Position numbers and translations under genes: made by a program. Below, piece by piece: positions 1 through 64,000 of a stretch of DNA of 64,000 nt. This stretch comes from an uncultured archaeon (GTDB lineage Archaea; Aenigmatarchaeota; Aenigmatarchaeia; QMZP01): positions 3,826 through 67,825 of the forward strand of contig CAZSLL010000003.1 in the NCBI GenBank assembly GCA_964607835.1, read 5' to 3'. The notes beneath the pieces were generated by a model. It searched no databases. It was not told the origin of the DNA and was given only the letters and a program-made list of their open reading frames with translations. How positions within the stretch are numbered: the first letter of the stretch is position 1; the number at the start of each line of letters is the position of its first letter.

Positions 1-30
1 GACTCCTTATGCGAGAACAGCCGCGACCTG

Positions 31-894
31 TTGAATTCAGGCATCAGGGGAGCCAACACCAGACCACATGCCCTGATAAAAGAGATTTTACATGCCGACC
101 TAGAAAGCGAGAAGATAAAACCAGACATAAATGAAGACTCGTTCAGGTATTCCTGCCACAAGCAGGAAATTGAGCCTATTATATCAAGCTGGGGGGATAT
201 CCTTCTATTCGGGGAGGGCAGCGATGCCCTGATATGCTACGCCCCGCTTTATGAGCAAAGGGGCAAAGAGCTAAAGGATGTCCTCACGGACAGCACCAAG
301 GCCGGTATGACTTCGTCAACCACCAGCTCAGAGATAGCTGGTCATGGAATCGAGGTCATATTCGAGCTGACAGAGGAAGGTGAAATAAAGAACCCTATGC
401 ATATCCTCATCGGTGTCAACAACCCTGTGAAGTCTTATGACAACTATTACAGGGCAGATTACGTTCTCCTCTCTGACAGGAACATGGATGGGAAGCTCGA
501 CAGCGTTTCCGCATACAATCTGCTGCTGCACAAGAGCCAATACCTTGACCAGAGCGGATTGGATGCAATTCTAGAGACCGTGCCGGCCCGAATTTTCAGC
601 GACAATGATTTTGATGGAAGCGCCGAGCATCTGAGCAGCACATACTGCGAGGCCGATGTGCTCATCATTGAGCCTCATCTGGGAGACCACCCGAAGGAAA
701 ACAACTTCTGTTACAATGACAAGAGGGAGTGGGTGGGCATCGCTACAACAGTAGCCGGGTTCGCCATAGACGCCACTGTAAAGGCAATACCGACGCCTGC
801 GACCTGGCTAATAGGCACTGCTGCTGACTGCTGGCTAGCCTACAAGACGACTGACTGGGTGAACCCTGACTGGCCAAGCAACGACTGGGGATAG
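31..894 (+). CDS. hypothetical protein (may be 5'-truncated at window edge)
   Basis: 287-aa ORF with no recognisable motif; frame may be open to position 1. Confidence 0.3.
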   Translation: MNSGIRGANTRPHALIKEILHADLESEKIKPDINEDSFRYSCHKQEIEPIISSWGDILLFGEGSDALICYAPLYEQRGKELKDVLTDSTKAGMTSSTTSSEIAGHGIEVIFELTEEGEIKNPMHILIGVNNPVKSYDNYYRADYVLLSDRNMDGKLDSVSAYNLLLHKSQYLDQSGLDAILETVPARIFSDNDFDGSAEHLSSTYCEADVLIIEPHLGDHPKENNFCYNDKREWVGIATTVAGFAIDATVKAIPTPATWLIGTAADCWLAYKTTDWVNPDWPSNDWG

Positions 895-896
895 AA

Positions 897-1556
897 TCAT
901 TTGACAAGATAGAACCTTCCGTCCTTCTTGGCCACGATAAGATAACGTTGGGTACCTGATTCCTCTCCATCATTCATCCTGGTGTATTCTGTTCTTACTC
1001 CGAGCGAGACCTCGTAGAAATCTGGCTTTTCCAGGCCCTTTCCGAGAAGCTCTTCTGGTATTTCAGATTCAGGTGCCTGTCTCATTCCCTTTATCCTGTA
1101 TGCTTCAAGACCCCTCTCCGGTATTCCCCATGTTGGCTCTGCTCCTGGGAGCATTATTTCCTCTTTGAACTTCTCTGCCTCCTCATTCCTCCTCAGCTCT
1201 ATGAGGGCCAGCATGAAGTTGTTTATGTTACCGAAGTTTCCATAATCCTCGTTGGGTTCAAAATCAGGATAAACTGCATCCATCCTGTGTTCAAAGCCTT
1301 CTGTGGTTGGAACCCCTGGCTCATGAACGTAGCCCCTTTCCACCATCTTCTTTACATCTGCCTGGGGCCTGGGGGCCTCCTTGAGGGCAAGCTCCTGCTT
1401 CCGGGGCTCCTGGTGGGCAGCGTTAATCCTGCTCTCGTCCACATCGCTGCTGTAGAGCTTCCAGGCAAGGCCGGCTACTGCTGCCAGGCCTCCGGCTACT
1501 GCCGCGGGCTTCATCCAGCCACTGTAACCCGAATCAAGAGTGGAATCCGTCATCAT
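897..1556 (-). CDS. hypothetical membrane-anchored protein
   Basis: 219-aa ORF; N-terminal hydrophobic helix (PAAVAGGLAAVAGLAW); no known catalytic motif. Confidence 0.4.
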   Translation of the reverse strand: MMTDSTLDSGYSGWMKPAAVAGGLAAVAGLAWKLYSSDVDESRINAAHQEPRKQELALKEAPRPQADVKKMVERGYVHEPGVPTTEGFEHRMDAVYPDFEPNEDYGNFGNINNFMLALIELRRNEEAEKFKEEIMLPGAEPTWGIPERGLEAYRIKGMRQAPESEIPEELLGKGLEKPDFYEVSLGVRTEYTRMNDGEESGTQRYLIVAKKDGRFYLVK

Positions 1557-1835
1557 AACACCTCTATTACAGGCTTTATTCGACTATTTATAAAGCTTAT
1601 GGTGGTGATTGACGTATTCACTGTGTGCTGTTTTTTCGGGGAGAGATATAACGGTGTTATATCCCTGAAAACCCAAGCAAAGCCGGATAAATGGCCTGCC
1701 CCAAATAATAACCATGGAAATGTCCATACGCACCATCATGGTTATCGTGATAGGCCTCATAGCCGCCCTGCTCATGCTCACCATCTTCGCCTCAGGGACC
1801 AGCCAGGGTAGCAGCATGCTGGATGGAATTTTCGA

Positions 1836-2024
1836 TTGGTTCAAGATTCTCGGAGGGGGAGGGGCCTCATGAGAGGAGAAGGAGGCATGCTGGAGCTCAT
1901 GGGCAGCTACGGAAAGCTCCTCTTCGCCATCCTAATCGTGGCCTTCCTGCTCATCATATTCATAGTCTACATCAACTCAAACCCAGAGCTGGGCATCTCC
2001 CTGCCAGAGCTCTTTGGAGGATAA
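1836..2024 (+). CDS. small pilin-like membrane protein (probable start at internal Met around 1869-1887)
   Basis: Hydrophobic core MLELMGSYGKLLFAILIVAFLLIIF mirrors the MEYLMTYGWAILIVIIV core of the class III signal-peptide pilins at 26781 and 57992; first gene of the plus-strand operon. Confidence 0.35.
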   Translation: MVQDSRRGRGLMRGEGGMLELMGSYGKLLFAILIVAFLLIIFIVYINSNPELGISLPELFGG

Positions 2025-2026
2025 AC

Positions 2027-2224
2027 ATGAATCAGAAGAAGGGAATAACAGTAATGACCCTGGGCCTGATAATAGGCATAATCCTGTTCGTGGCAGCCAT
2101 CATCTTCATCATGCTCTTCTACGAGGGCGACCTCTTCCAGGCCATACTCGGCGGCACCCAGAGCCAGTTCCCTGGCTTCGAAAGCGGAGGCTCAGGTGGT
2201 GGGGGAGCAAGCGGCGAGTTCTGA
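2027..2224 (+). CDS. small pilin-like/TM protein
   Basis: ATG at 2027 in frame of listed ORF 1823..2224; MNQKKG followed by a 22-residue hydrophobic helix and a Gly/Ser-rich tail; start 3 nt after the previous stop. Confidence 0.35.
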   Translation: MNQKKGITVMTLGLIIGIILFVAAIIFIMLFYEGDLFQAILGGTQSQFPGFESGGSGGGGASGEF

Positions 2225-2279
2225 GCTCCTCACCAATTTATAGCATTCCTGATAACTATTAACCATAGGTGTTTCTCTC

Positions 2280-2993
2280 ATGCCGGGAAAGGATGGCAGC
2301 GTTCCCATTGACTTCATGCTCTGGGTTGCAGGCACTCTCATCGCCATCGTGGTTTTCGTGGCCATAATATGGCCCTGGGTGCTCTCGTTCTGGTACGGCG
2401 GGTGCTGGTCAGATGCCCGCACAGATATCAGGGACCTGGGCAGCGAGATAGAGACAGGCATACGCAGCGACAACCCAGGCCAGTTCGTGAGGTACAGGCT
2501 CTCTGTGGGGGACTGCATAGGCGGAGTGGCTTTCATAAACGGCAGGGAGGACCCGGCATACTCTGGCTTCATCCAGAAGGAATGCGAGGAGTATTCAGGG
2601 TACAAGTCCTACATGATTCTCTTCCCCAAGGAGTACATGCTGGCCAAGGATGATGAATACCAGAAGGGCCTTGACGAGGAACTGGAGGAGAAAATCGATA
2701 ACCTCAAGGACGCAATGAGCTACTGGGAGGCCTTCAAGCTCTGGGTGAAGGAAAAGACAGGCAGGGTCCCGCCCGTATACTGCTATGAGCTCGAGCACGC
2801 AATCTCCGAGGACAGCATAAAGTCCCTTCCCGAAGGGTTCTACCAGGACCCCTTCACCGAAAGCAACTGGAACTCAGGGACCGACTACTGCATGCTCATA
2901 ACCCCGCGCCCGACATCCAGCCCCGGGGACTTCAACTACGATATCGAGAGCATCACCTGCCCGCCCAGGGAGTCTCCCGAAGAGGAGGAGTGA
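2280..2993 (+). CDS. hypothetical N-terminally anchored protein
   Basis: 237 aa; single N-terminal TM helix (FMLWVAGTLIAIVVFVAIIW), acidic C-terminus; stop overlaps start of next gene (ATGA at 2990). Confidence 0.5.
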   Translation: MPGKDGSVPIDFMLWVAGTLIAIVVFVAIIWPWVLSFWYGGCWSDARTDIRDLGSEIETGIRSDNPGQFVRYRLSVGDCIGGVAFINGREDPAYSGFIQKECEEYSGYKSYMILFPKEYMLAKDDEYQKGLDEELEEKIDNLKDAMSYWEAFKLWVKEKTGRVPPVYCYELEHAISEDSIKSLPEGFYQDPFTESNWNSGTDYCMLITPRPTSSPGDFNYDIESITCPPRESPEEEE

Positions 2994-4066
2994 TGAAAAC
3001 AATGAAAGCCTTCTCAGGACCCGCAGGCTCGTTCGTGCAGTGGGTGGGCCTTCTTCTCATCGCCCTGCTCATGCTCTACGTAATAATCCAGTGGGGGGAG
3101 GCAGGGGCCCATGTCCAGAGGGGCCTGGAGCAGGGTTCCATAATGTACTCGGTGGCCAATTCAGTGAGCGCCCTGTCCTCCATGGGAAGCGGCGAGGTTA
3201 GCCGCTATCTTCTGAACACCTATGACCTGACTGTCCGCTGCGATGGCGGCTCCTGCTTCGTGAGGGCCAGGCCCTATGACAGCTCAGGGAATCCAGGGGA
3301 GGAGAGCCAGGAGGTGCTCATCCTGGGCAATATCGAGCCGGCTTCCCTGAAAGAGGTGAACAGAATAACCTTATCCAAGGAGCCCGGAGGAAAGGTGGTC
3401 CTGACAGGGGAGAGGGTGGAGGACGCCTTCAGGGGAATCCTTGTCCCTGGGGAATACCCTACCATGTGCATAACCACCCACCCGGACATAGCAGGGCTCC
3501 TGGCTGACCCTGAAATAAACCAGGGCCTGGAGCCAGAACTCCTGGCAGCAATCATCCAGGCCGAGAGCTCCTGGCAGGAGGACGCCTACAGGTATGAGCC
3601 GGGGTACCAGTTCAGGTACCTTGAAGGCAGTGAGTGGGAGCAGGACAGCAACTGGCTCTCCAGCGGCCCCACTGTGGACCAGTGGCTGGGAAGCCACCCC
3701 TCCAGGCAGGGCGAGTCAGAGGGCCTCTCTGAAGAGCAGCTTTCCCGGACTGCCCAGACCAGCATATCAGCCAGCTACGGCCTCATGCAGCTCATGTACC
3801 CCACTGCTGTCCAGTCCTGCAGGGGGGCCAGCTTCAGGGGAAGCAGGGTGACCCTTGGAAGCCCGGACGACCTCTACGGCCCTGCCCTCAACATCTTCTG
3901 CGGTGCCAGGCACCTCAAGAGTCTCCAGTCCACCTACCAGGACCTCAGGGACCAGGTCTCGGCCTACAACGCAGGCCAGCCGAGGTGGACCACGAGTCTG
4001 GCCAACAGGGAGTACACTGCAAGGGTGCTTGGCTACTACAATGCCTACAGGGGGTGCGTGGCATGA
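2990..4066 (+). CDS. lytic transglycosylase (SLT domain) protein, membrane-anchored
   Basis: N-terminal TM helix; SLT family motifs seen directly: catalytic E-S motif in LAAIIQAESSWQEDAYRYE and the GLMQ motif in SYGLMQLMYPTA. Confidence 0.6.
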   Translation: MMKTMKAFSGPAGSFVQWVGLLLIALLMLYVIIQWGEAGAHVQRGLEQGSIMYSVANSVSALSSMGSGEVSRYLLNTYDLTVRCDGGSCFVRARPYDSSGNPGEESQEVLILGNIEPASLKEVNRITLSKEPGGKVVLTGERVEDAFRGILVPGEYPTMCITTHPDIAGLLADPEINQGLEPELLAAIIQAESSWQEDAYRYEPGYQFRYLEGSEWEQDSNWLSSGPTVDQWLGSHPSRQGESEGLSEEQLSRTAQTSISASYGLMQLMYPTAVQSCRGASFRGSRVTLGSPDDLYGPALNIFCGARHLKSLQSTYQDLRDQVSAYNAGQPRWTTSLANREYTARVLGYYNAYRGCVA

Positions 4067-4512
4067 GGGCAAGCATGTTCGAGATTTCCACCCTATACCT
4101 CATTGTAGCTTTTGGCATGGTCATGTTCATAGGCTTCGGGTTCATGACCTTCGGCAGCATCAGCTACTCTGCCGACGTGGTCTCCCAGAACCTGGGCCAC
4201 CTGAGGGCAGTGGACGCTGCCCATCTTGTTGCATCGTGCCTGGAGGGCGGGGACGGGTTCATAACATCCCAGGAGATGGAATCCTTCACAAAGGAAAGTT
4301 GCATATCCATATACCCCTCGCTCTCAGGCATCGATTTCGAATTCAGGGTAGAGGACCTCTCAGACCCGGGCATGTCCACTGAATCGCCAGGATACGATGA
4401 CTCAGCATACGGTATATCATTCTCAGAAGAGCTCACCAGCCACTCGCTCTTCATCAGCATAGAAGGGGAAGGCGAGGTCCATGCAGGGAGGTTGTATGTC
4501 CAGACCAGTTAG
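4063..4512 (+). CDS. hypothetical small membrane protein
   Basis: ATG at 4063 overlaps stop of SLT gene (ATGA); MRASMFEISTLYLIVAFGMVMFIGFGF hydrophobic N-terminus; internal part of listed ORF 3985..4512. Confidence 0.4.
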   Translation: MRASMFEISTLYLIVAFGMVMFIGFGFMTFGSISYSADVVSQNLGHLRAVDAAHLVASCLEGGDGFITSQEMESFTKESCISIYPSLSGIDFEFRVEDLSDPGMSTESPGYDDSAYGISFSEELTSHSLFISIEGEGEVHAGRLYVQTS

Positions 4513-5494
4513 GAAGGCCCAGGTCACCCCGATAGACCTATTCCTCATAGCCCTGGTGTTCTTCATGGGAGTGGGCCTCTTCCTTTTCATGAACTTCATG
4601 TCATCCAAGGACATGATAATCAGCAAGCAGACCATCTACAGCACCATGGAGCTGGATGACAGGGGAAGCGAGCTGGTGGCTGCCATGGCTTCCACCTACC
4701 AGGGCACGCCGTTCATGGTTCATGCCGGAGCCACTGCTGTCCAGGGATACAATGACCACATCTCAGATGCCCTTGAGGCCCTCTCCGAACTCAGGAAGAG
4801 CCTGGGCACTGGGTACGCCCTCAGGCTCCCCGGCATAAGGCTGGATTCTGGCGAGGACGAGTCAGGACCCGATGCTGTTCCGATACCATCAGGGTGCTTC
4901 ATAACCGATACAATTTCACAAAGCACAAAGCTTATCTGGCCCATGCCCGGAGTGAATGATGTCTCCAGCCAGCCTGGCCTGAGGCAACTTTCCGGAAGCG
5001 AGTGCCGCTGCCACAAGGGTGTGGACATACCGGGTGGAGGCCTTGACGTGATTGCGGCCTACTCAGGCACGGTATCCAGGGCGTACGAGAGCACCAGCTA
5101 CGGCAACACGGTCATTATCAACCACAATGGGGAGTGGTCAGGGTACAGTACCCTGTACGCGCACCTTGACTCCATTTCAGTCAGCGAAGGCGACAGGGTC
5201 TCTGCCGGGCAGAAAATCGGAATCTCGGGCAACACAGGAATATCCCACGGAAGCCACCTGCACTTCGAGGTAATCAGGGGCTCGATTGTCACAGACCCCA
5301 ATGTGGACCCCTGCAGATATCTGCAGTCCAGGCCCTCCTCCTGCGTGGTAATGGACAGGTGCGAGCTCGCAGAGGACCTGGAGCCCGTTTCCGGGAAGAG
5401 CCACATGATGGACGTCCCGCTTCCCGGAGCCAGGGAGGGCAGCCTGAAGGGCAGAGTCGAACTCGTAATGGGGGATTCGGGAGGGAGTCTGTGA
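4496..5494 (+). CDS. M23/LytM family metallopeptidase, membrane-anchored
   Basis: N-terminal TM helix, then the M23 motif series: HKGVDI...AAYSGTV...GNTVIINHNGEWSGYSTLYAHL...AGQKIGISGNTGISHGSHLHFEV; alternative start at 4481. Confidence 0.6.
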   Translation: MSRPVRKAQVTPIDLFLIALVFFMGVGLFLFMNFMSSKDMIISKQTIYSTMELDDRGSELVAAMASTYQGTPFMVHAGATAVQGYNDHISDALEALSELRKSLGTGYALRLPGIRLDSGEDESGPDAVPIPSGCFITDTISQSTKLIWPMPGVNDVSSQPGLRQLSGSECRCHKGVDIPGGGLDVIAAYSGTVSRAYESTSYGNTVIINHNGEWSGYSTLYAHLDSISVSEGDRVSAGQKIGISGNTGISHGSHLHFEVIRGSIVTDPNVDPCRYLQSRPSSCVVMDRCELAEDLEPVSGKSHMMDVPLPGAREGSLKGRVELVMGDSGGSL

Positions 5495-6411
5495 AGGGGA
5501 ACGCGCTTTTCATAGTGGTGATACTAATCGCCATCCTGGTGGCCTTCATGACAGCCTTCAGCATAAGGTTCAACCTCTTTGGAGGGGGCGAGGGAACTGT
5601 GCAAAAGGCAAGCCTACAGTCAGACATATACACAATGGGACACGCACTTGACGCTGCAGAACTATACATGGAAGCCTCGCTGGATTACTCTGTGTATCAG
5701 GCCTGCCATGACACCCTTTTGTTGGGCTCTTCTCTTGAACAAAAGAGCGAGGAAGATTTCAATTCTGAGATGCAGGACAAAGTTCAGGAATACTACAGCC
5801 GTTACCTCCATGCAGGTTTCTCGTTCCTCAATGGTTACTCAGTATCCCTCCCTGCTTCGGGCGTGAGCCTTTCTGGACAGAGTGATGCCTTCTCAGCTAA
5901 TGTCACTTCAATGGAAGAGATGACCACCACCAGCCTTGTGAAATCCGGAGAGTCCGTGACCCTCAGGGCAGGGGCAGAGTTTACCAGGGATTATTACATC
6001 CCCTGCTACTCAGTATACCATAAGGGAGTGGAGCTCGAGCCTTCCCTTTCCTCTGACCTTTCTGACGGGCTGGCGCTTGCGCTCGGGGAGACTGACCCAC
6101 TGGAATGCGCCACAGAGGATGAGTGCTCCCGCCTCCTCGAGCAGGAGCTTGACGGGCTCTTCAGCGAGTCAGGGAGGTTCCCCTCACTGCTTCAGGAAGG
6201 CTTCCGGGTGGAACGCGAAATCACGGAATCAGGATACAGGATAAGCACAATAGACCGCACCACAGGGGATGTGTCCTGGGAGGCCACCGCTTCCCAGAGA
6301 GTGACCATACAGCAGGAGGACCCTGAATACTACCCGGTATGGAACGGCCAGGAACTGGCCTTCAAGCCCATGAGGCTGACCTTCCTCATGGAGGCCTCCT
6401 CCTCGGGCTAG
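5491..6411 (+). CDS. hypothetical N-terminally anchored protein (GTG start overlapping previous stop)
   Basis: GTG at 5491 overlaps TGA of M23 gene; VKGNALFIVVILIAILVAFMTAF hydrophobic start (KG-hydrophobic, class III signal-like); listed ORF 5359..6411 extends upstream implausibly. Confidence 0.45.
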   Translation: MKGNALFIVVILIAILVAFMTAFSIRFNLFGGGEGTVQKASLQSDIYTMGHALDAAELYMEASLDYSVYQACHDTLLLGSSLEQKSEEDFNSEMQDKVQEYYSRYLHAGFSFLNGYSVSLPASGVSLSGQSDAFSANVTSMEEMTTTSLVKSGESVTLRAGAEFTRDYYIPCYSVYHKGVELEPSLSSDLSDGLALALGETDPLECATEDECSRLLEQELDGLFSESGRFPSLLQEGFRVEREITESGYRISTIDRTTGDVSWEATASQRVTIQQEDPEYYPVWNGQELAFKPMRLTFLMEASSSG

Positions 6412-21416: not shown

Positions 21417-24400
21417 GTGGCTGACAAGAAAAATGCGGTGGCAGAAAAGAAAAAGAGAGACAGGAAGCCGCCTGAAGAGGATGAGGGAAAGAAGACCGAG
21501 ATGGTGGCAAGGCTCAAGGAGCTCCTCCACAAGAAATACCTTAAGCAGCTCAACAAGGCCGCCCTTGAGGAAAAGGCACTTGTTATAGACTTCGCCACCC
21601 TTAGCAAGTTCTCATACGAGCTGGGAGAGGCCCTGCTCAGCCAGCCTGACTTCCTCCTGGAATGCGCCAAGGAGGCAGAGGAGGCAATAGAGGGAGTGCC
21701 CGGGCCGGTTCCGGTCAGGATTATGAGCCTGCCTGAGATGACATCCATCAGGGACCTGAGGGCCAAGCACCTCGGAAGGTTCCTCTCAGTGGAGGGCACG
21801 GTCAGGAGGGCATCTGAGATAAGGCCTGAGATACAGAAGGTTCTCTGGGAGTGCCCTGAATGCGGGGACATCATAGAGGCCTACTCAGAGGTGGGCATGA
21901 TAAGGAAACCCTTTGCCTGCAACTGCGGCAACCGCACAGGGTTCATAAAGAAGCATTCAGTCCTGGTGGACACGAGGTGGGTGACCATAGAGGAGCCCTT
22001 CGAGCTCACAGAGGGTGACCGCCCCTCCCAGATAAATGTGGTCCTCAATGACGACCTTGTTTCCAGGCATGGGCGGCGCATGACAGACCCGGGGAACAGG
22101 ATAAAGGTCACCGGAATCCTGAGGGAGACTCCCAAGGGAAAGATATTCTCCTCCAAGCTCGACCTCTTCATGAGCGCTAACCACGTGGAGCCCACTGAGA
22201 TTGGCTGGCACATGCTGGACATCTCAGAGGAGGATGAGAAGGAAATCAAGAGGCTGGCAAAGGACCCCAAGATATACGACCTCCTGGTGGGCTCCCTTGC
22301 CCCAAGCCTGTACGGGCTCACTGAGATAAAGGAGAGCATAATACTCCAGCTGTTCGGCGGCGTTCCCCTGCACCTCAGGGACAAGACCCATGTCAGGGGA
22401 GACATCCACGTGCTGCTTATCGGTGACCCCGCAGCGGGAAAGTCCCAGCTCCTCAAGCTCGTCCCTGAAATAGTCCCCAGGGGCAAGTACGTGTCCGGTA
22501 AGGGGACAACAGGAGCCGGGCTGTGCACGGTCTATGACAGCCTGGTCCAGATGGAGGACGGCGGTTTTGTTAGGATTGGTGAGCTGGTGGAGAATGAGCT
22601 CAGTGGAAACTCAAAGAGTCATTCAGAGGGGATTACCGTGGCCAGCAACCCCTCCCGCAGGAAGGTACTCAGCCTCTCGGGAAGCAGCGGCAAGCTGAAA
22701 CCCATGGAAATCACCCAGTACTGGAAGATAAAGGCCCCTGGAAAGCTGGTCAGGATAACGACCAGAAGCGGAAGAGAGGTAACAGTGACCCCGGACAACC
22801 CCATACTGACCATGTGCAATGGCATTCTCGAATGGAAGAAGGCAGCACATCTCAGTGACTCTGATTACGTGGCCTCGGCGAGGGCCATTGCAAAGCCCCC
22901 TGAAAGGGATGTTCCCCTGGCTGACCTTGTCGAGGATTCTGTGCATGTGCTGGAGTCAGGGGACATAGTCAAGAGGCTTGTCCATGAGATAAGAGCCCGT
23001 GGCAGTATCAGGGAATATTCCGCAAGGTCAGGAATCAACGAAAACAGCCTTTACCATTCCTGGATAAGGAATGATGCTGTTGGAAACCCAGACATGGGCA
23101 CGCTCAGGGGAATATGCCGCGACATGGGAATGGATTACGGCGAGCTCATTCCCCCAAGGATGCGGCTCTCACAATACAAGGGCCATGAGATAATGCTTCC
23201 CAGGCACCTGAATGCAGACCTGATGTACATTGCAGGCCTTATTGCAGGGGATGGAAGCATATCAAGCACAGCTTATGGCGGAATGGACATCAAATTCTGC
23301 AGCGCTGACGAATGCCTCCTCGAGTCATTCCGCCGGCTTTGCGAGAAGCATCTGAGGGCTCCGCTAAGGGAGGAGTCCAGGGGAAGGATACCTTACATGA
23401 GGTTCAGGTCCAAGATATTCGCCAGGATACTCTCAGAGCTGGGAATACCCCACGGGAAGAAGTCGTCCAGCATCAGGGTTTCGCAGATGCTCTCGTCCCT
23501 CCCTGACAGCCTCGTCCGGGCCTATCTCCAGGGCATCTTCGACACGGATGGCAGTGTGCAGCCGCGGACATCCGGCTCCAGTGTCATTGAGCTCACCACA
23601 GCCAGCAGGGAATATGCCCGCGGAATCCAGCTCCTTCTCCTGAGGTTCGGCGTATTGTCTTCGGTAAGGGAGAGGAGGGCCACAGAATCCGTCATTCATG
23701 GCAGGACTGTCAGGTCTGGCAGGAAATGGAGCCTTGAGATAAGGGGCGAAAACACATCATCCTTCGATGGTAGTGTTGGCTTCAGGCTCGCCAGGAAGTC
23801 TGCCAGACTCGATGAGCTTATTTCCTCTTCAGGGAAGAGCAACACGAATACAGATGTTGTGCCCGGGATAGCGGGATTGCTCAGAAGGGCCAGGCTATCG
23901 GCAGGCCTCTCGGCAAAGCAGCTATACGGATACAAGAACTACACTTATGAGCGTGGTGAAAGAAGCCCTTCGCGGGTCATGCTCAAGAGAATAGCTGACA
24001 GGCTGGCTGAGCATTCCAGCGGCAGGGATGCAGAAACCCTCATGATGCTCGCCTGTTCAGATATCCTGTGGGAAAGGCCGCGAATTGGCCTCATCGACAA
24101 CAAGGAGCACGAATATGTGTATGACGTGACGGTCGAGGGGGAGCACAGCTTCATGGCCAATGGGGTGATAATCCACAACACCGCGACCGTGACCAAGGAT
24201 GAGCAGTTCATGGGAGGCTGGGTGCTCGAGGCAGGGGCCATGGTGCTTGCCAACAAGGGCATGCTCGCAGTGGACGAGTTCGAGAAGATGTCGCCAGAGG
24301 ATCAGGTGGCCATGCATGAGGGCCTTGAGCAGGGCACTGTGTCCATAGCCAAGGCCTCCATTGTGGCAACACTTCCCGCAAAGACCTCTGTGCTTGCGGG

Positions 24401-25124
24401 AGGCAACCCCAAGTTCTCCAGGTTCGACCCTTACGTGCCCATCTCAAAGCAGATAACAATCACAGACACCCTGCTCTCCAGGTTCGATCTCAAGTTCGCG
24501 ATCCAGGACAAGCCCCAGAGCGCGAGGGACAAGAGCGTGGTGGACCACGTCATAAAGACCAGGGAGGACGAGAACTTCGAGGGCGCCATGCCAAAGATAG
24601 ACCCTGCCTTCATAAGGAAGTACATAGCCTATGCCAGGGAGCACTGCGAGCCAAAGTTCAACAAGGAGGCAGGCAAGATTCTCAGGAACTTCTACATAAA
24701 GACCAGGAAGAGGTCAGAGGGCTCCGGCTCTGTGCCCATAACCATGAGGCAGTTCGAGGCCCTGCTCAGGCTCTCAGAGGCTTCTGCCAAGATTCAGCTC
24801 CAGCCCGAGGTCAGGAAGGAGGACGCCCAGAGGGCCATAAGGCTCATGAAATGCTCGCTCAAGCAGCTGGGGCTTGACCCCGAGACCGGCGAGATTGACA
24901 TAGACCGCTCTGAGGGAGGAACCCCTGCCAGCGAGAGGTCCAAGATAAGGATTGTTCTTGACATAATCGACAAGCTCTCTGAGACCAAGAAGGAGATAGC
25001 CCTGGAGGAGCTCAGGAGCGCCGCAAGGGGAGACGGCGTGGACGACGTGGACGACATCATCGAGAGGCTCAAGACCCAGGGCCTCCTCTTCGAGCCCTCC
25101 CCCGGATTCGTGCAGAAGGTTTAG
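21417..25124 (+). CDS. mcm: MCM replicative helicase (intein-containing precursor)
   Basis: Zinc finger CPECGD...CNCGN, Walker A IGDPAAGKSQLLK, GKGTTGAGL | intein | TATVTKDE...VDEFEKM arginine finger region; extein about 683 aa. Confidence 0.9.
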   Translation: MADKKNAVAEKKKRDRKPPEEDEGKKTEMVARLKELLHKKYLKQLNKAALEEKALVIDFATLSKFSYELGEALLSQPDFLLECAKEAEEAIEGVPGPVPVRIMSLPEMTSIRDLRAKHLGRFLSVEGTVRRASEIRPEIQKVLWECPECGDIIEAYSEVGMIRKPFACNCGNRTGFIKKHSVLVDTRWVTIEEPFELTEGDRPSQINVVLNDDLVSRHGRRMTDPGNRIKVTGILRETPKGKIFSSKLDLFMSANHVEPTEIGWHMLDISEEDEKEIKRLAKDPKIYDLLVGSLAPSLYGLTEIKESIILQLFGGVPLHLRDKTHVRGDIHVLLIGDPAAGKSQLLKLVPEIVPRGKYVSGKGTTGAGLCTVYDSLVQMEDGGFVRIGELVENELSGNSKSHSEGITVASNPSRRKVLSLSGSSGKLKPMEITQYWKIKAPGKLVRITTRSGREVTVTPDNPILTMCNGILEWKKAAHLSDSDYVASARAIAKPPERDVPLADLVEDSVHVLESGDIVKRLVHEIRARGSIREYSARSGINENSLYHSWIRNDAVGNPDMGTLRGICRDMGMDYGELIPPRMRLSQYKGHEIMLPRHLNADLMYIAGLIAGDGSISSTAYGGMDIKFCSADECLLESFRRLCEKHLRAPLREESRGRIPYMRFRSKIFARILSELGIPHGKKSSSIRVSQMLSSLPDSLVRAYLQGIFDTDGSVQPRTSGSSVIELTTASREYARGIQLLLLRFGVLSSVRERRATESVIHGRTVRSGRKWSLEIRGENTSSFDGSVGFRLARKSARLDELISSSGKSNTNTDVVPGIAGLLRRARLSAGLSAKQLYGYKNYTYERGERSPSRVMLKRIADRLAEHSSGRDAETLMMLACSDILWERPRIGLIDNKEHEYVYDVTVEGEHSFMANGVIIHNTATVTKDEQFMGGWVLEAGAMVLANKGMLAVDEFEKMSPEDQVAMHEGLEQGTVSIAKASIVATLPAKTSVLAGGNPKFSRFDPYVPISKQITITDTLLSRFDLKFAIQDKPQSARDKSVVDHVIKTREDENFEGAMPKIDPAFIRKYIAYAREHCEPKFNKEAGKILRNFYIKTRKRSEGSGSVPITMRQFEALLRLSEASAKIQLQPEVRKEDAQRAIRLMKCSLKQLGLDPETGEIDIDRSEGGTPASERSKIRIVLDIIDKLSETKKEIALEELRSAARGDGVDDVDDIIERLKTQGLLFEPSPGFVQKV
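22524..24179 (+). mobile_element. MCM intein with LAGLIDADG homing endonuclease domain (552 aa)
   Basis: Begins with Cys (AGL|CTVYDS), ends VIIHN|T; LAGLIDADG motifs YIAGLIAGDGSI and LQGIFDTDGSV. Confidence 0.8.
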
Positions 25125-26780: not shown

Positions 26781-27287
26781 ATGTCCATGAAGAAAGCACA
26801 GTCTGCAATGGAATACCTGATGACATACGGATGGGCAATCCTGATCGTCATAATAGTGGCGGCGGCGCTCTATGCCCTGGGAATCTTCAATCCTGCGACA
26901 TACACCGGAAGGATACCCACGGGTTTCACGACTCTTGGCGCCCCAGAGGACTGGGATGTCAACAGCGATGGCGATGTAAGGATAATCCTGAACAACCGTC
27001 TGGCAAGCCAGATAACAGTGTACGAGATATCCGTTACCTCTGGCACCACAACTGACACCTGGGAAACAGTCGGCTGCACCGGGGCAGGGACCTACCTGAC
27101 CATAGCACCGAACGGCCAGGTTGAACCCTCGAATACAACGTGTCCGAGCTCGAATGAGGAATACGAGCTCAACGTGGGTTCCCAGACCTCAGGAACAACC
27201 TACTCCGTAGATGTCGAGATACTCTACAATTCAGGCGGCTTCAACCACACTGAATCAGGCAAGATAACGGGCACCATCAGCTCCTAA
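26781..27287 (+). CDS. archaeal type IV pilin-like protein (class III signal peptide)
   Basis: MKKAQSAMEYLMTYGWAILIVIIVAAALY class III signal/hydrophobic core; Thr/Ser/Asn-rich body with NxT/S sequons. Confidence 0.7.
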   Translation: MSMKKAQSAMEYLMTYGWAILIVIIVAAALYALGIFNPATYTGRIPTGFTTLGAPEDWDVNSDGDVRIILNNRLASQITVYEISVTSGTTTDTWETVGCTGAGTYLTIAPNGQVEPSNTTCPSSNEEYELNVGSQTSGTTYSVDVEILYNSGGFNHTESGKITGTISS

Positions 27288-45993: not shown

Positions 45994-47493
45994 TCAGCAG
46001 CAAAGCGCGAATAGCCATGCAGGCATGAAGAGCACATCTGATTCCAGCTTTAAAGTCTTCTCGGTTATCATGATACTGAGCTCAATCCCTTGTTTCCTCA
46101 TGAAGCTTATGAGTGCTGATTTGTCGTGACTCCCTGAAGCATCGTGTTTGACCTCTATTGGTAGCACATATTTGCCGTAATTGATTATTATATCGATTTC
46201 CCCCTCCTTGGTCTCTGTGTAACCAACATCTACTTTATCGTGATCAGAAAGGAAGAACTGAAGCCTCTGGGCATGGTTGAATATACAGGTCTCCAGCACC
46301 TTTCCCATCTCAGTCCGATTGTTGAGAAGGGTCTCGTTCAGTGAGCTCACGATGGCGTTTCTCAGTCCGATGTCATTGATATGTATCTTGTAGTCCTTTC
46401 TCATACTCTTCATTCCGCTCACTGAGAAGAACCTCGAAAGCGAAATAAGATATGCCTTCTCCAGGTAACCGATGTACTCTGTGACAGTCACCTTGTCTAT
46501 GCCCAGGTTCTGGGACAGGCTTGAATAGTTCATGTTCTTTGACGTGACATCAGACAGCAGGTACAGAATCTTCTCTATATACTGGGTGTTCCTTATCTTA
46601 TATCTCTTTACGAGGTCGAGTATTGTCATTTCCATTTTATCCTTCAGCATCCTGGACGCCTGGGAATACGTGGAGATTCTCAGCAATCCTGGATAGCCCC
46701 CACGAATGAGATACTCGCTGAATCTTATCTTTAACTCTTCCTCTATCAGAGATGTCCTGGTCATGTTTTCCATGATGTCTTTGTACAGTTGCTTGGCATC
46801 CCCTGACTCGATGGACCTTCTCATACTGTTCCTCAGGTCAATGCTTATGTTCAATATCTCTGGTCTGTGATTCCTCATATAGAAGCAGGCGAAATCAGAG
46901 AATTTCATTGTAGATATCACTCTTTTGCTCATTCTTCCTTGCAGGGGATTACTGGCTTCATATATCTCGGTGCTTGAGGAGCCTGAAACAAAAAACTTTA
47001 TTCTGTATTTCTTGTCATAGAGCGACTTCATGGCATGGGACCAGCCCTTCATATGCTGTATCTCGTCGAGGAAGATGTATACAGTATCTGACATCTTCGC
47101 CAGCGGCTCTTTCAATACGTATCTTGTGTAGACTTCTATGCAGTCATTGATGATATCGTCTGTTACGTTTTTCAGTGACGTGTCATCAAGCTCTACGTAT
47201 AATATCCTCTTAGGCTCCACGCCCCTGCCTATGATCTCGTCAATTAACTGGAACATTATTGATGTCTTTCCGACCTGCCTCGGCCCGGTAATTAGTGTTA
47301 TGTGTTTGCTGCCAATCTCACCTCTCAGTGCAAAGAAATCCCTTCTCCTGTAAGGCTCTATCATCTCTTCAGGAACCTTCCCGCTTGTCCAGTGTCTGTT
47401 GAACGTGACGCTTAGGAGGCTCAACAGTTTCTGCTCATCCAGCTTTGGCTTCGCTATTGAAGGGCCCTTTTCTTTGGTCATGTAGTATATCAT
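45994..47493 (-). CDS. AAA-family ATPase with C-terminal DUF4143 (AAA_14/DUF4143 family)
   Basis: Walker A ITGPRQVGKTSIMFQL, Walker B IFLDEIQ, C-terminal GEIDIIINYGKYVLPIEVK nuclease-like fold; gene sits in a markedly AT-rich segment. Confidence 0.65.
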   Translation of the reverse strand: MIYYMTKEKGPSIAKPKLDEQKLLSLLSVTFNRHWTSGKVPEEMIEPYRRRDFFALRGEIGSKHITLITGPRQVGKTSIMFQLIDEIIGRGVEPKRILYVELDDTSLKNVTDDIINDCIEVYTRYVLKEPLAKMSDTVYIFLDEIQHMKGWSHAMKSLYDKKYRIKFFVSGSSSTEIYEASNPLQGRMSKRVISTMKFSDFACFYMRNHRPEILNISIDLRNSMRRSIESGDAKQLYKDIMENMTRTSLIEEELKIRFSEYLIRGGYPGLLRISTYSQASRMLKDKMEMTILDLVKRYKIRNTQYIEKILYLLSDVTSKNMNYSSLSQNLGIDKVTVTEYIGYLEKAYLISLSRFFSVSGMKSMRKDYKIHINDIGLRNAIVSSLNETLLNNRTEMGKVLETCIFNHAQRLQFFLSDHDKVDVGYTETKEGEIDIIINYGKYVLPIEVKHDASGSHDKSALISFMRKQGIELSIMITEKTLKLESDVLFMPAWLFALCC

Positions 47494-47535
47494 GATTTAC
47501 TTATTTAAATAATTAGGTATATCATGATTTACTTT
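47483..47535. repeat. 19-bp direct repeat GTATATCATGATTTACTT (2 copies, 33 bp apart) at the ATPase gene start
   Basis: Copies at 47483..47501 and 47516..47534; first copy contains the ATG of the 45994..47493 gene. Confidence 0.4.
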
Positions 47536-47670
47536 TTTAGGTTATATGAGTAAATTATACTATACCTGGCATGTCCTTTTGCTGCAGAAACAATCTTGGT
47601 TATGAGAACATGAATATAATTGACTCTCCTGGATAGCTTTTCACAGGTGAGAAACAGGTACAGTGCTAGC

Positions 47671-49143
47671 CTATTTCTTTGTGCAGAAAACCATTGTGTC
47701 CAGCTTGGTCATCTCGTCTATGGAGTAGCCTATGCCCTCTCTGCCCATACCTGAGTCCTTGTTCCCTCCGAAGGGGAATATACCCACCCCGTGCGCTGGG
47801 TGGCCGTTTATGGTGACAGAGCCGTCCTCGAGCTCCCTGGCTATGCTTATGGCCTTGTCCACATCCTGGGTGAAAACGCTGGCGTCCAGCCCGTACTGGG
47901 ATTTGTTGGATAGCTCCACTGCCTCCCTGCTGCTCTTCACCCTCATGACCGTGACAACGGGGCCGAATGTCTCCTCCCAGGCAATCCTCATCTTTGGCGT
48001 TACCCTGTCCAGGACAGTTGGCGCATAGTAGAGCCCCTTGACCTTCCTTCCGCCGAGAAGGACCTTTGCTCCCTTCTCCCTGGCGTCTTCCACCAGGGCC
48101 TCCACCTTTTCCAGGGCGCCCTTGTTTATTAGCGGGCCTATGGTGGTCTTTGGGCTCGAGGTGGGCCCGGTCTTCCAGTTCTTTGCCCCCTTCACAATGA
48201 GTCTCAAGAATTTGTCAGCCGCCTTCTGCTCAACCAGTATCCTGGATATGGCGTCGCACCGCTGGCCAGAGAACTTGAGGGCCCCTGAGAGGCACTCCTT
48301 TGCAGCCAGCTCCACGTCAGCATCAGCCAAAACTATGGCCGCTCCCTTGCCCCCCAGCTCGAGGTGCATCCTCTTCATGCCTGCCTTCTCCGCAATCCTC
48401 TTTCCTGCAGAAGAGCTGCCTGTGAATGAAACCATGTTGACCTTTGGGTGGGACACCAGGAAATCCCCTATCTCTGAGCCAGAGCCCGTCAGCACGTTGA
48501 GCGCCCCCCTGGGTACTCCTGCCATCTCAGCCAGCCTTGCGAACATGAGCATGCATATGGGGTCGTCAGAGGCTGCCTTGTGCACGACAGTGTTGCCCGC
48601 TGCCAGGGCAGGGGCTATCTTGGCCACGCTAATGAAGAGCGGGTAGTTGAACGGTGAGATGGAGAGTATCACTCCCTTGGGCTTTCTGGAAACCAGGGCG
48701 AACCTGCTTCCCTTGCCCACGAGCTCGCCCGGGATGTACTCGTTCCTGAACCTTCCGATTTCCTCGCACGCCAGGTGCAGTCTCTCTGCGGCTGCCTTGA
48801 CCTCTCCCTCGCAGTACTTCACGGGCTTGCCTGCCTCCCTGGAAATCATGTCCACGAGGTCCTTGCGGTGCTCCTTTACCAGGCAGGACAGCCGCTCCAG
48901 CATTTCCACCCTCTTGTCAGCGCTCATGCCGGACATTAGGGGCCTGGCCTTCCAGGCAGCCTGCACCGCAGCCTCGGCATCCTTCTTGAGGCAGTATGGT
49001 ACTTTGCCCACGGACTTGCCGCTGGCCGGGTCATGCACCTCTATGGTGCCCTTACCAGTGGCCTCTACCCACTTCCCGCTGATGTAGTTCCTGTAAGAAG
49101 GGGGGCTTCCCGAGTTCCTTATGGGCTTCCAGGGACTCGCCAT
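47671..49143 (-). CDS. NAD(P)-dependent aldehyde dehydrogenase
   Basis: ALDH Glu motif LELGGKGAAIV and Cys motif FSGQRCDAISRILV; start at internal Met of listed ORF. Confidence 0.8.
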   Translation of the reverse strand: MASPWKPIRNSGSPPSYRNYISGKWVEATGKGTIEVHDPASGKSVGKVPYCLKKDAEAAVQAAWKARPLMSGMSADKRVEMLERLSCLVKEHRKDLVDMISREAGKPVKYCEGEVKAAAERLHLACEEIGRFRNEYIPGELVGKGSRFALVSRKPKGVILSISPFNYPLFISVAKIAPALAAGNTVVHKAASDDPICMLMFARLAEMAGVPRGALNVLTGSGSEIGDFLVSHPKVNMVSFTGSSSAGKRIAEKAGMKRMHLELGGKGAAIVLADADVELAAKECLSGALKFSGQRCDAISRILVEQKAADKFLRLIVKGAKNWKTGPTSSPKTTIGPLINKGALEKVEALVEDAREKGAKVLLGGRKVKGLYYAPTVLDRVTPKMRIAWEETFGPVVTVMRVKSSREAVELSNKSQYGLDASVFTQDVDKAISIARELEDGSVTINGHPAHGVGIFPFGGNKDSGMGREGIGYSIDEMTKLDTMVFCTKK

Positions 49144-57527: not shown

Positions 57528-57992
57528 CTATCCGCTCACAGTGCCTGTCAGTGTCCCGGTTTCGGTGTGGTTGAGACCCCCGCCCGCGTTGTAGAAAATC
57601 TCCACGTTGACTGAGTATGTTGTTCCTGCTGTCTTGCTTCCCAGGTTGAGCCCGCTCGCTGATGCAGGGTACTGGTACTCCTCGCCCGGGGCCATGCTGA
57701 ACGAGGTCTCGTTGGTGTCAGTGGCCGTTCCCATTGAAGCGGTCACGCTGTACACTGTTATGGGGTCAGCCAGCCTGTTGTTGAGTATTATGCTAAGGTC
57801 CCCGCTGCTCGTGAGGTCCCAGTCAGTGGGCGTTCCCAGGGTGGTGAACCCGGTGGGTATCCTTCCGGTGTACGTGGCTGGATTGAATATCCCCAGAGAA
57901 TATAGCGCAGCAGCCACGATGATGACTATGAGTATGGCCCAGCCGTACGTCATCAGGTACTCCATCGCAGACTGCGCTTTTTTCCTTGTCAT
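57528..57992 (-). CDS. archaeal type IV pilin-like protein (class III signal peptide), paralogue of 26781..27287
   Basis: MTRKKAQSAMEYLMTYGWAILIVIIVAAALYSLGIFNPATYTGRIPTGFTTLG identical over about 50 aa to the other pilin at protein level. Confidence 0.7.
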   Translation of the reverse strand: MTRKKAQSAMEYLMTYGWAILIVIIVAAALYSLGIFNPATYTGRIPTGFTTLGTPTDWDLTSSGDLSIILNNRLADPITVYSVTASMGTATDTNETSFSMAPGEEYQYPASASGLNLGSKTAGTTYSVNVEIFYNAGGGLNHTETGTLTGTVSG

Positions 57993-58033: not shown

Positions 58034-58987
58034 TCAGGAGGGTATGAGCGAGCCGAACATTATCTGTATGAGCAGGCCTGAGAGGAAGAAAGCAGCCAGT
58101 GCCGCCCCCATCATGATGGGGATGTACTTGATGCCTGCCTTCTCCTTGCCAGAGTCAATTATGCCTATTATCATGCCCCCGAACACAGTTGTTATGATTA
58201 TTGCTGCCAGAGAGAACATGAACAGGAAGCCCGGGTCCACGGATATCTCACCGAACCTCATCATGGGTATCCTGCTCTGGAACTCTGAGGGTACCTCTGC
58301 CACCATGCCCAGTTCGCCAATGGTGGTCACCAGGTAAGAGGAGAGAGCGTACAGCACAGGGGCGCCGGCGCACCCCGCGAATCCTATGAATATGCCGTAC
58401 ATGAGTATGTTGGCCTTGACCTCCTTCTTGATGGCCTGCCTTCTCCTTATGTCCAGGGCGGTCTCCTCGAAGAGGGCCACGAGCTGGCCCCCTGATTTGA
58501 TGCCCTTTATGACCAGGGATATGGTCCTGTCCAGGGTGTCGGATTTTATGGTCTTGGGGACCTCGGTGAGGCTCTCCTGCAGGCTCCTCCCGGTCATCAT
58601 CTCCTTTCCTGCCCTCTTGATGGAGTCTGAGAGCGGGCCGAACTCCTTCCTGGCAGAGAGAATCATGGCCCTGCTGGGAATGAACCCTGACTTTATGTTG
58701 GCTGCCATGAGCTGGAGTGCGTCAGGGAGTATGTTCTCCACGAATTTGCTCCTCTTCTCCACCGCCAGTATGAGGAATCCGTGGAGGAGAGCGAACATTG
58801 CACCGAAGCCTCCAGCAAAGGCCAGAAGAATGGAGCCAGGGAACACGGCAGCTGCCAGCGCCCCTGCGCCCAGCCCGATGACCATGGCCCTGAGGAAGAA
58901 CCGCGCAGGGGTCTTCCTGCTCCCTGAGTACATGAGAAGGCTCTCGACCCTCCTTGAGTATGGCCTTGGCAGGAGCCGGTCTATCAT
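58034..58987 (-). CDS. TadC/FlaJ-like pilus assembly platform protein (T2SS-F domain)
   Basis: Polytopic; IKSGFIPSRAMILSARKEFGPLSDSIKRAGKEMMTGRSLQESL ... IKGIKSGGQLVALFEE matches GspF/TadC domain; directly upstream of pilin. Confidence 0.6.
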   Translation of the reverse strand: MIDRLLPRPYSRRVESLLMYSGSRKTPARFFLRAMVIGLGAGALAAAVFPGSILLAFAGGFGAMFALLHGFLILAVEKRSKFVENILPDALQLMAANIKSGFIPSRAMILSARKEFGPLSDSIKRAGKEMMTGRSLQESLTEVPKTIKSDTLDRTISLVIKGIKSGGQLVALFEETALDIRRRQAIKKEVKANILMYGIFIGFAGCAGAPVLYALSSYLVTTIGELGMVAEVPSEFQSRIPMMRFGEISVDPGFLFMFSLAAIIITTVFGGMIIGIIDSGKEKAGIKYIPIMMGAALAAFFLSGLLIQIMFGSLIPS

Positions 58988-63267: not shown

Positions 63268-64000
63268 ATGGCCACCGAAACCAGGAAGCCCGCCGTGGCG
63301 GGCATGTTCTACGACTCCAGCAGGGAGGGACTTGAGGAAACGCTTGGCAACCTGTTCTCAGGGATAAAGGAGGGTCCGGTATATAACGGTGTTATATCCC
63401 CCCACGCCGGCTATCCCTACTCAGGGAGGACCGCAGCACGCGCGGTCTCCGCCCTCAGGCCCTCCAGGAGGTTCATAATCCTGGGACCCAACCACACAGG
63501 AATGGGGGGCGCATTCTCCACCATGTCCTATGGCTCCTGGGAGACCCCCCTGGGAGAGGTCCCCATAGACCATGCAATGGCCAGGGAAATCCTTGGGTGC
63601 GGCCTTCCTGAGGATGATGCCCTGGCCCACTCCAGGGAGCACTCCATAGAGGTCCAGCTCCCCTTCCTCCAGCACCGCTTCGGCTCAGGCATATCCTTCG
63701 CGCCCGTATCCATAATGGGCTTTGGCCACACCCAGGCCTTCCTGGAGCAGTGCCGGGAGCTGGGCTCCTGCCTCGCCGGAGTCGCGGAGAAGCACGACGC
63801 CAGGCTAATAGCGAGTTCTGACTTCTCCCACTACGTATCCTGGGAGGCTGCCAGGGACAAGGACGGCAGGGCCTTTGAGATGATTAAGGACCTTGACCTG
63901 GAGGGATTCTTCAGAACCCTGCACAAGACCCATGCCTCTGTGTGCGGGTACGGCCCCATAGCCGTGCTCATGGCCGCTGCGAAGAAGCTGGGCTGGGAAA
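63268..64000 (+). CDS. AmmeMemoRadiSam-system protein B (Memo-like), 3'-truncated by window end
   Basis: Hand translation from ATG 63268: MATETRKPAVAGMFYDSSREGLEETL ... VISPHAGYPYSGRTAA ... ILGPNHTG ... HSREHSIEVQLPFLQ ... SSDFSHY matches MEMO1 family. Confidence 0.65.
   Translation, partial: MATETRKPAVAGMFYDSSREGLEETLGNLFSGIKEGPVYNGVISPHAGYPYSGRTAARAVSALRPSRRFIILGPNHTGMGGAFSTMSYGSWETPLGEVPIDHAMAREILGCGLPEDDALAHSREHSIEVQLPFLQHRFGSGISFAPVSIMGFGHTQAFLEQCRELGSCLAGVAEKHDARLIASSDFSHYVSWEAARDKDGRAFEMIKDLDLEGFFRTLHKTHASVCGYGPIAVLMAAAKKLGWE

Follow-up and report, generated by a model that had tools for sequence, protein, structure and literature searches.

The locus described here raises the question of what use an archaeon has for two enzymes of the murein-cutting kind, encoded together in an operon of membrane-anchored proteins; we know of no archaeon that possesses murein. 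The operon lies in a 64,000 nucleotide stretch of DNA, called the window below, from an uncultured member of the Aenigmatarchaeota (contig CAZSLL010000003.1 of assembly GCA_964607835.1, positions 3,826 to 67,825). Its products would form a surface set with prepilin-like (class III) signals, made up of three very short proteins (s1, s2 and s3) and five larger scaffolds (A, the SLT protein, B, D and C). Two of the scaffolds appear to bear grafted hydrolases, a family-1 lytic transglycosylase that follows the pilin-like module of the SLT protein and an M23 endopeptidase within D. The interpretation preferred here, to which we give a probability of about one half, is that these subunits, modular and pilin-like, display murein hydrolases towards bacterial cells as part of a pilus, a pseudopilus or a tip complex.

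Eight co-directional plus-strand genes, mostly overlapping, make up the operon (1714-6411; Table 1). Stops and starts are coupled through ATGA at 1869, GTGATG at 2990/2993, ATGA at 4063 and GTGA at 5491, and the B/D junction is an overlap of 17-32 nucleotides (4481/4496-4512). A GGAGG-type ribosome-binding site precedes most of the starts, and every product has an N-terminal hydrophobic segment. An earlier reading made from the letters of the DNA (the sequence-only reading) had described the tight packing, with overlaps at 2990, 4063 and 5491, and the hydrophobic anchors on all products; the former is confirmed from the coordinates and the latter also holds. It had, however, counted eight genes between 1836 and 6411, a range that holds seven, the total of eight being reached once s1 at 1714 is included. 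This 52 amino acid protein had been overlooked, and the operon does not begin at 1836, where the supposed 62 amino acid TTG open reading frame is more likely the 51 amino acid ATG frame at 1869. On the 3' side the operon is followed by Rpp14 in convergent orientation and then by GatA.

Both enzyme assignments of the sequence-only reading are confirmed by searches with Pfam hidden Markov models. The SLT domain (PF01464, E=7.1e-15) scores above the curated cut-off and has a lysozyme-like fold; the M23 domain (PF01551, E=3.4e-27) scores 94.9 bits against a cut-off of 28.7. The motifs quoted earlier (AIIQAESSWQED, SYGLMQLMYPTA, HKGVDI and HLHFEV) are all present, and the catalytic residues, on whose alignment the earlier assignment had been made to depend, align in both domains and are intact. 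The SLT motifs E191-S192, S261-Q266 (SYGLMQ) and A324-G328 (AYNAG), together with six cysteines, are invariant in the 14 full-length homologs of the SLT protein found among 5.8 billion proteins. These motifs align to MltC and Slt70, relative to which about 60 extra residues are inserted between motif I and motif II, and the fold matches Slt70, MltC and MltE. The zinc ligands and catalytic histidine of the M23 domain (HKGVD, YAHLD and SHLHFEV) are present and are conserved in orthologs, and its best M23 match in the PDB has E=3e-14. In alignment A4 the M23 block sits between the N-terminal part and the C-terminal strand of scaffold D. By every sequence criterion the SLT and M23 enzymes look active. 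Weak Pfam matches to MIT and DUF533 were dismissed as noise.

The most informative result comes from the related loci (L002 and onward), the comparison of which indicates that the scaffold is conserved and that the hydrolase domains it bears can be exchanged as cargo. In the alignment, M23 is absent from the D proteins of L002/L003, L013 and L088. In L090 it is C that bears an SLT domain, P0024 is a fusion of C and SLT, and extra SLT genes are present in L007, L011 and L090. The C-type scaffold of L013 (1441-3492), at 683 amino acids, adds a GDSL/SGNH esterase and an Amidase_3 domain (N-acetylmuramoyl-L-alanine amidase; E=7e-49). At L088 (7747-11113), and likewise at L089, the whole seven-gene prepilin-like scaffold operon is found in the same position with no recognisable hydrolase domain, be it SLT, M23 or other, and in L088 a pilin-sized protein of 163 amino acids occupies the place of the SLT protein. 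In a profile search of 1.84 billion representatives the C family comprises 235 clusters. Among its 32 longest members, 15 have SLT and three have Amidase_3, while YkuD, Peptidase_M15_4, GDSL, PG_binding_1 and SLT_2 occur once each; the remaining extra domains are Ig-like, PKD and fn3, and a purple-acid-phosphatase N-terminal domain in two members. Carriers without the domain and domains without the carrier therefore both occur, as in modular pilins, provided that the pilin assignment holds.

N-termini, folds and assembly

The dipeptide [KR][GA] is found directly before the hydrophobic stretch of s3, the SLT protein, B, D and C in every ortholog across 5 loci, as in RKA/QVTPIDLF, MRA/SMFEIST and MKG/NALFIVV, where the slash marks the junction. 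The relatives of A also have the motif (MKA/V, MKG/F, RGA/V and KKG/L); the window copy reads KDG/S. The motif is absent from s1, and the N-terminus of s2 differs among relatives. The pilin idea of the sequence-only reading proves stronger than was proposed, since the best prepilin-like N-termini are those of s3 and of the larger proteins, the enzyme-bearing ones included, and not those of the first two small proteins. At the distant locus L088 the motif is present in all seven proteins. In the C family the dipeptide is kept in 137 of 149 representatives (92%), many of which share less than 30% identity; shuffles matched in composition reach 33%. Two canonical pilins elsewhere in the window, recognised earlier at 26781 and 57992 and confirmed here, have the KA/Q junction that also occurs among the operon N-termini, KKA/QSAMEYLMTYGWAILIV (KKA/QSAMEYL). 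These two pilins are paralogous and nearly identical in their N-terminal halves.

The operon proteins are acidic, with isoelectric points of 4.2-5.2, whereas the housekeeping proteins checked have values of 5.7-11.3, most of them 8.5-10. This fits export. Their cysteines are conserved or invariant, and from their sequences the operon proteins look extracellular. For the SLT protein, AlphaFold2 predicts a 52-residue N-terminal helix (11-62) and a β-sheet (67-140) in the form of a "lollipop", then a linker and the SLT domain. Among the scaffolds, A has no match in Pfam, NCBIfam or a profile search of PDB sequences, B has no known domain and the same PDB search with it was empty, a Foldseek search of C against the PDB gave nothing significant, and hhalign found no similarity among the five scaffold families beyond the transmembrane helix. 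Sequence conservation lends good support to the class III assignment, and for one protein predicted structure supports it too; beyond this it is putative.

On the preferred interpretation, the proteins would be inserted into the membrane in N-in/C-out orientation and their short MKG-type leaders cut off by a prepilin peptidase. The N-terminal helices would then allow the subunits to enter a fibre of the type IV pilus kind, or a short pseudopilus or tip complex, whose assembly machinery would be encoded at other places in the genome. One candidate is the T2SSF gene at 58 kb, its T2SSF/PilC-like product being a possible assembly partner of the operon. The hydrolases would be held off the archaeal surface, and at contact with a bacterium the SLT enzyme would cut glycan strands and M23 the peptide cross-links. 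Local opening of the wall could lead to attachment, feeding or killing of the bacterium. A more specific proposal, which we advance tentatively and at less than even odds, is a "lytic pilus" with which uncultured and probably ultrasmall archaea would drill the walls of bacterial hosts or prey, using hydrolase-bearing minor or tip pilus subunits in which phage-type lysin domains are grafted onto archaeal pilins. In relatives, and just as tentatively, the cargo would be an amidase, an M15 peptidase or a domain of the L,D-transpeptidase fold.

Several observations weigh against assembly of this kind. Genes for an assembly ATPase, a platform protein or a prepilin peptidase are missing from the locus and its flanks in all of the assemblies, and neither a prepilin peptidase nor an assembly ATPase was found among the approximately 50 open reading frames of the window that were scanned. 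The leaders are mostly of three residues only, and what we take to be the strict FlaFind pattern is matched by only part of the N-termini. No Pfam or NCBIfam pilin model matches any operon protein, although this is a test of low power, the canonical pilins of the window being themselves marginal (UpsA, E=0.002). In the model of C, the transmembrane helix is split from the next helix by a low-confidence glycine-rich linker, and the fold similarity of the modelled scaffold to pilins is weak.

The missing assembly genes, the flexible linker in C, the lack of a pilin model match and the weak fold similarity speak at the same time for the main rival explanation, a membrane-anchored ectoenzyme complex that forms no filament and is held by plain, uncleaved signal anchors. 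Enzymes sitting in the archaeal membrane or in the space of the surface layer (S-layer) would digest bacterial wall for necromass scavenging, in competition or in close contact, a reading that suits the enzymes and the range of cargo just as well. A plain anchor, however, needs positive charge and not a conserved glycine or alanine, yet the dipeptide is kept in the C family far beyond the level of shuffles and in every L088 protein. The long helix and sheet predicted for the SLT protein are a pilin architecture, and three helix-only proteins of 37-65 amino acids are hard to account for as enzyme anchors. Anchored ectoenzymes are for these reasons considered unlikely, though not strongly so, and presentation by pilin-like subunits is preferred.

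Target, host and origin

Amidase_3, M15 and YkuD act on N-acetylmuramic acid (MurNAc)-L-Ala and D-amino-acid peptides, which pseudomurein and S-layers do not contain. This specificity of the cargo points to bacterial murein as the target, which would very probably be true bacterial murein. The murein target of the sequence-only reading is in this way backed by the cargo of the wider family (SLT, M23, Amidase_3, YkuD, M15 and PG_binding_1). It is very improbable that the enzymes are instead autolysins for a murein-like wall of the archaeon's own, serving growth, division or passage of pili. SLT, M23, amidase and L,D-transpeptidase-fold domains are the usual wall-remodelling set of bacteria, and as the window covers 64 kb of the genome, wall synthesis genes could be located elsewhere. 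However, no Mur ligase, MraY, MurG or penicillin-binding protein was found among the open reading frames scanned, and pseudomurein, having neither MurNAc nor D-amino acids, lacks the substrates of SLT, Amidase_3 and M15. The loss of M23 in L002 and L013, and of all hydrolases in L088, would likewise be odd for essential autolysins.

The archaeal host proposed earlier is confirmed by marker genes in the window (intein-containing MCM, Rpp14, GatA/B, HerA, FtsZ, SMC, Cdc48 and geranylgeranyl reductase) and in the orthologous loci (G1P dehydrogenase, GGGP synthase and Alba). A synteny survey, as suggested with the sequence-only reading, found that at least 8 independent assemblies share the gene order and its place in the chromosome, and the arrangement is hence not due to chance. 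In L002 to L007 the order is G1P dehydrogenase, GGGP synthase, the large protein, the small divergent gene, the operon and Alba/Rpp14/GatA. The operon is partial in L008 to L011 and has a more distant form in L012, L013, L088/L089 and L090. Its guanine-plus-cytosine (GC) content is native. From the recurring order and neighbours it follows that the operon has been passed down vertically in the chromosomes of an archaeal lineage and is neither a contaminant nor an island acquired recently. The organism is very poorly sampled, as the housekeeping proteins have no relative of at least 90% identity in a collection of 15 billion proteins. Among species-representative genomes the sole match of the SLT protein is an unrelated Acidobacteriota protein. 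The relatives originate from sediment projects of the Salton Sea type and from a cold seep in the South China Sea. Halophily, hinted at by halo-type DUFs in L006, was rejected because the cytoplasmic proteins are basic.

Outside the family, the nearest relatives of the SLT domain are stand-alone SLTs of 150-170 amino acids with 25-33% identity and an ES...YRYEP...GLMQ signature. They are found on viral contigs of IMG/VR, adjoining terminase and DNA polymerase genes, and are probably phage lysins. Judging from this resemblance, it is likely that a phage-type lysin domain was captured by the archaeal lineage. Deposited phage genomes had no match to the SLT domain in a tblastn search. The stand-alone subfamily is widespread (L033 7938-8408, L062 7962-8411 and L092-L116), with the pattern ESSG..AYRYEP.FW.RY and a gap of 38 amino acids before GLMQ.

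The sequence-only reading had also allowed for a VirB1-like system of bacterial origin. Type IV and type III secretion systems (T4SS, T3SS) and flagella of bacteria do come with SLT enzymes, but that the operon descends, as a remnant or in altered form, from a horizontally acquired system for secretion or conjugation (VirB1-like T4SS or type II secretion system, T2SS) is scarcely credible and this suggestion is largely refuted. VirB4, VirD4, VirB6, secretin and GspE/F are present in none of the loci (the window, L002, L004-L007 and L088), and no other T4SS or T2SS component was found in any locus. The scaffold proteins belong to no Pfam or NCBIfam family and are free of hydrolases in L088, the synteny is stable and archaeal with native GC, and the nearest SLT relatives are the small phage-borne SLTs and not VirB1. 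Equally hard to credit is the idea that the operon serves an integrated virus, or some other mobile element, for lysis or entry. The viral contigs bearing the closest outside SLT relatives could be cited for it; however, the C family scaffold has no relative in 2.9 million viral contigs (IMG/VR), the operon keeps its place between housekeeping genes in divergent genomes, integrase, capsid and terminase genes are absent nearby, and GC is native. Remodelling of the archaeon's own wall, secretion of a bacterial type and a viral module thus each have poor support, and presentation of the hydrolases on pilin-like subunits remains the preferred interpretation.

Upstream region and feature coordinates

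The large protein at the start of the window has BLASTP matches to the large proteins of L088, L007, L002 and L006 (E 1e-4 to 1e-16) and no Pfam domain was found in it. In relatives its N-terminus, RRILKG/QTWQVEEMLKLFLLIVVFGG (LKG/QTWQVEE...), is class III-like. The relatives of the divergent gene have weak similarity to one another; the window copy has no BLASTP match to theirs and belongs to no Pfam family. The TATA-like box 5' of this gene, TTTATAAA, is a putative promoter, and in relatives a TATA-like element is found 25-31 nucleotides 5' of s1.

Between the divergent promoters is a palindrome, ATATAACGGTGTTATAT (ATATAACNNTGTTATAT), for which the chance expectation in the window is 0.00. 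It is also found 5' of the operon in L002, L005, L006 and L007, and 5' of the large-protein gene in L002 and L006 (L002 4616-4632, 4692-4708 and 8541-8557; L006 2445-2461, 3346-3362 and 6775-6791; L005 3093-3109; L007 3062-3078). This suggests a candidate operator common to the operon and the large-protein gene, which would place both in one regulon. An exact 20-nucleotide copy of the palindrome (ATATAACGGTGTTATATCCC) is also found at 63381-63400, within a MEMO1/AmmeMemoRadiSam-B-like coding sequence (ATG 63269), in which its translation is VYNGVIS. It is very unlikely to be there by chance; this copy may be an operator inside the gene, or a conserved motif may happen to coincide with it.

Elsewhere in the window, the MCM helicase gene (21417-25124; 1235 amino acids in total) is split by an intein in which there is a homing endonuclease domain of the LAGLIDADG type. 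GC is 0.45 at 46000-48000 against about 0.55 elsewhere, and this stretch, with an AAA_14/DUF4143 ATPase gene (45994-47493, minus strand), may be foreign DNA. Scans of the window for tRNA and Rfam families were empty.

Table 1. Positions of the operon genes and of the other features discussed, numbered within the window
Feature	Coordinates	Strand	Description	Remarks
Large conserved surface protein	1..894	+	C-terminal 297 codons	N-terminus outside the window; 773-1001 amino acids in relatives
Divergent gene	897..1556	-	219 amino acid single-pass membrane protein	Syntenic in L002, L005, L006 and L007 (214-240 amino acids)
TATA-like box	1589..1596		Palindromic, TTTATAAA	About 30 nucleotides 5' of the divergent gene; cgactATTTATAAAg conserved in L002, L005 and L006
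Palindrome	1646..1662		Conserved, 17 bp, ATATAACGGTGTTATAT	Candidate operator, between divergent promoters
s1	1714..1872	+	52 amino acid small membrane protein, MEMSIRTIMVIVIGLIAALLML...FDWFKILGGG	Opens the operon; open reading frame and orthologs in all loci
s2	1869..2024	+	51 amino acid small membrane protein, ...GGMLELMGSYGKLLFAILIV...LPELFGG	ATGA overlap with s1, GGAGG site upstream; orthologs
s3	2027..2224	+	65 amino acid prepilin-like protein, MNQKKG/ITVMTLGLIIGIILFV	K-G ahead of hydrophobic helix kept in all relatives
A	2280..2993	+	237 amino acid prepilin-like scaffold protein	Conserved cysteines; no known domain
SLT protein	2993..4066	+	357 amino acids	Modular pilin-like lytic transglycosylase
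Pilin-like module of SLT protein	2993-3412	+	Residues 1-140	Followed by linker
SLT domain	3482-4063	+	Residues 164-357
Catalytic Glu191 of SLT protein	3563-3565	+
B	4063..4512	+	149 amino acid prepilin-like scaffold protein, MRA/SMFEISTLYLIVAFG	[KR][GA]/ conserved in 7 relatives; no known domain
D (D-M23)	4496..5494	+	332 amino acids, prepilin-like scaffold, RKA/QVTPIDLFLIAL	M23 metallopeptidase domain inserted, about 5009-5296
C	5491..6411	+	306 amino acid prepilin-like scaffold protein, MKG/NALFIVVILIAIL	Founder of the family of 235 clusters
Canonical pilin	26781-27287	+	M(S)MKKAQSAMEYLMTYGWAILIV
Canonical pilin	57528-57992	-	154 amino acids, M(S)MKKAQSAMEYLMTYGWAILIV
T2SSF/PilC-like platform protein	58034-58987	-	317 amino acids (short)	Adjoins only the pilin at 57528-57992

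Comparison with known systems

That an archaeon lives on or preys upon bacteria has so far not been shown, and the idea rests on scattered SLT and M23 genes of DPANN archaea. The operon fits these earlier hints of small archaea living on bacteria and makes them testable, through its conservation, its carrier-plus-cargo logic, its almost wholly murein-specific cargo and its cargo-free relatives, which are natural "controls". If the preferred interpretation is true, the modular-pilin principle would reach from bacterial adhesins to archaeal catalytic subunits, and on the more tentative lytic-pilus proposal the operon would encode a cross-domain epibiotic or predatory apparatus; recruitment of phage lysin domains for such display is suggested. 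The C family could serve as a marker for candidate bacteria-associated archaea in metagenomes. No description of the operon, of archaeal pilin-grafted murein hydrolases or of a cargo-swapping family was found in the literature.

The SLT lysins of phages, virion-associated or endolysin, share with the proposed display the concept of a wall-cutting enzyme at the tip of a fibre, and the SLTs of 150-170 amino acids on viral contigs share with the operon SLT the ES...YRYEP...GLMQ...AYNAG signature and an insertion between motifs I and II. The archaeal SLT differs from those of viral contigs in its longer insertion (about 72 against 38 residues), its pilin-like fusion and its chromosomal location. 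The tip complexes of minor pilins and pseudopilins (GspH-I-J-K of the T2SS; FimU-PilVWX of the type IVa pilus) have no sequence homology and a weak structural match to the operon proteins, which lack an adjacent ATPase, platform or secretin gene; we know of no murein hydrolase cargo in such complexes. The Sulfolobus bindosome, reportedly described by Zolghadr and colleagues in 2007, is said to combine sugar-binding proteins that have class III signals with small pilin-like proteins. Compared by description only, it resembles the operon in having functional extracellular archaeal proteins with prepilin-type signals and small pilin-like partners, and differs in having its own ATPase and membrane protein (BasEF) and binding proteins as cargo.

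SLT (GH23) and M23 genes have been reported in DPANN archaea (Castelle 2021, PMC8204110; Vigneron 2022, PMC9723730; Chen 2018, PMC5864196; Vazquez-Campos 2021, PMC8561730). As in the operon, these are archaeal extracellular murein hydrolases, read there as a means of attack on, or attachment to, bacteria. They are, however, single genes, often very large (up to 3000 amino acids) and thought to be Sec-exported, and no multi-gene pilin-like scaffold operon, grafting pattern or hydrolase-free variant is described in these reports. One precedent is found in the episymbiotic Saccharibacteria, whose pili include minor pilins that are large and lectin-like (PMC11623550). Another is the modular type IV pilins known from bacteria, such as PilB and PilC of Streptococcus sanguinis (Raynaud et al. 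2021, PMC8179133), which are like the operon proteins in having an N-terminal class III-type pilin module, a linker and a functional module to be displayed on a filament, with many different modules on one carrier. They differ in being bacterial, in having the IPR012902 methylation motif and in bearing mostly adhesin or lectin modules. The operon is set apart by its archaeal host, its catalytic and murein-specific cargo, the position of M23 inside a scaffold and the several subunits per operon. What is known are thus modular pilins in bacteria and SLT and M23 genes in DPANN-type archaea, and the operon joins both.

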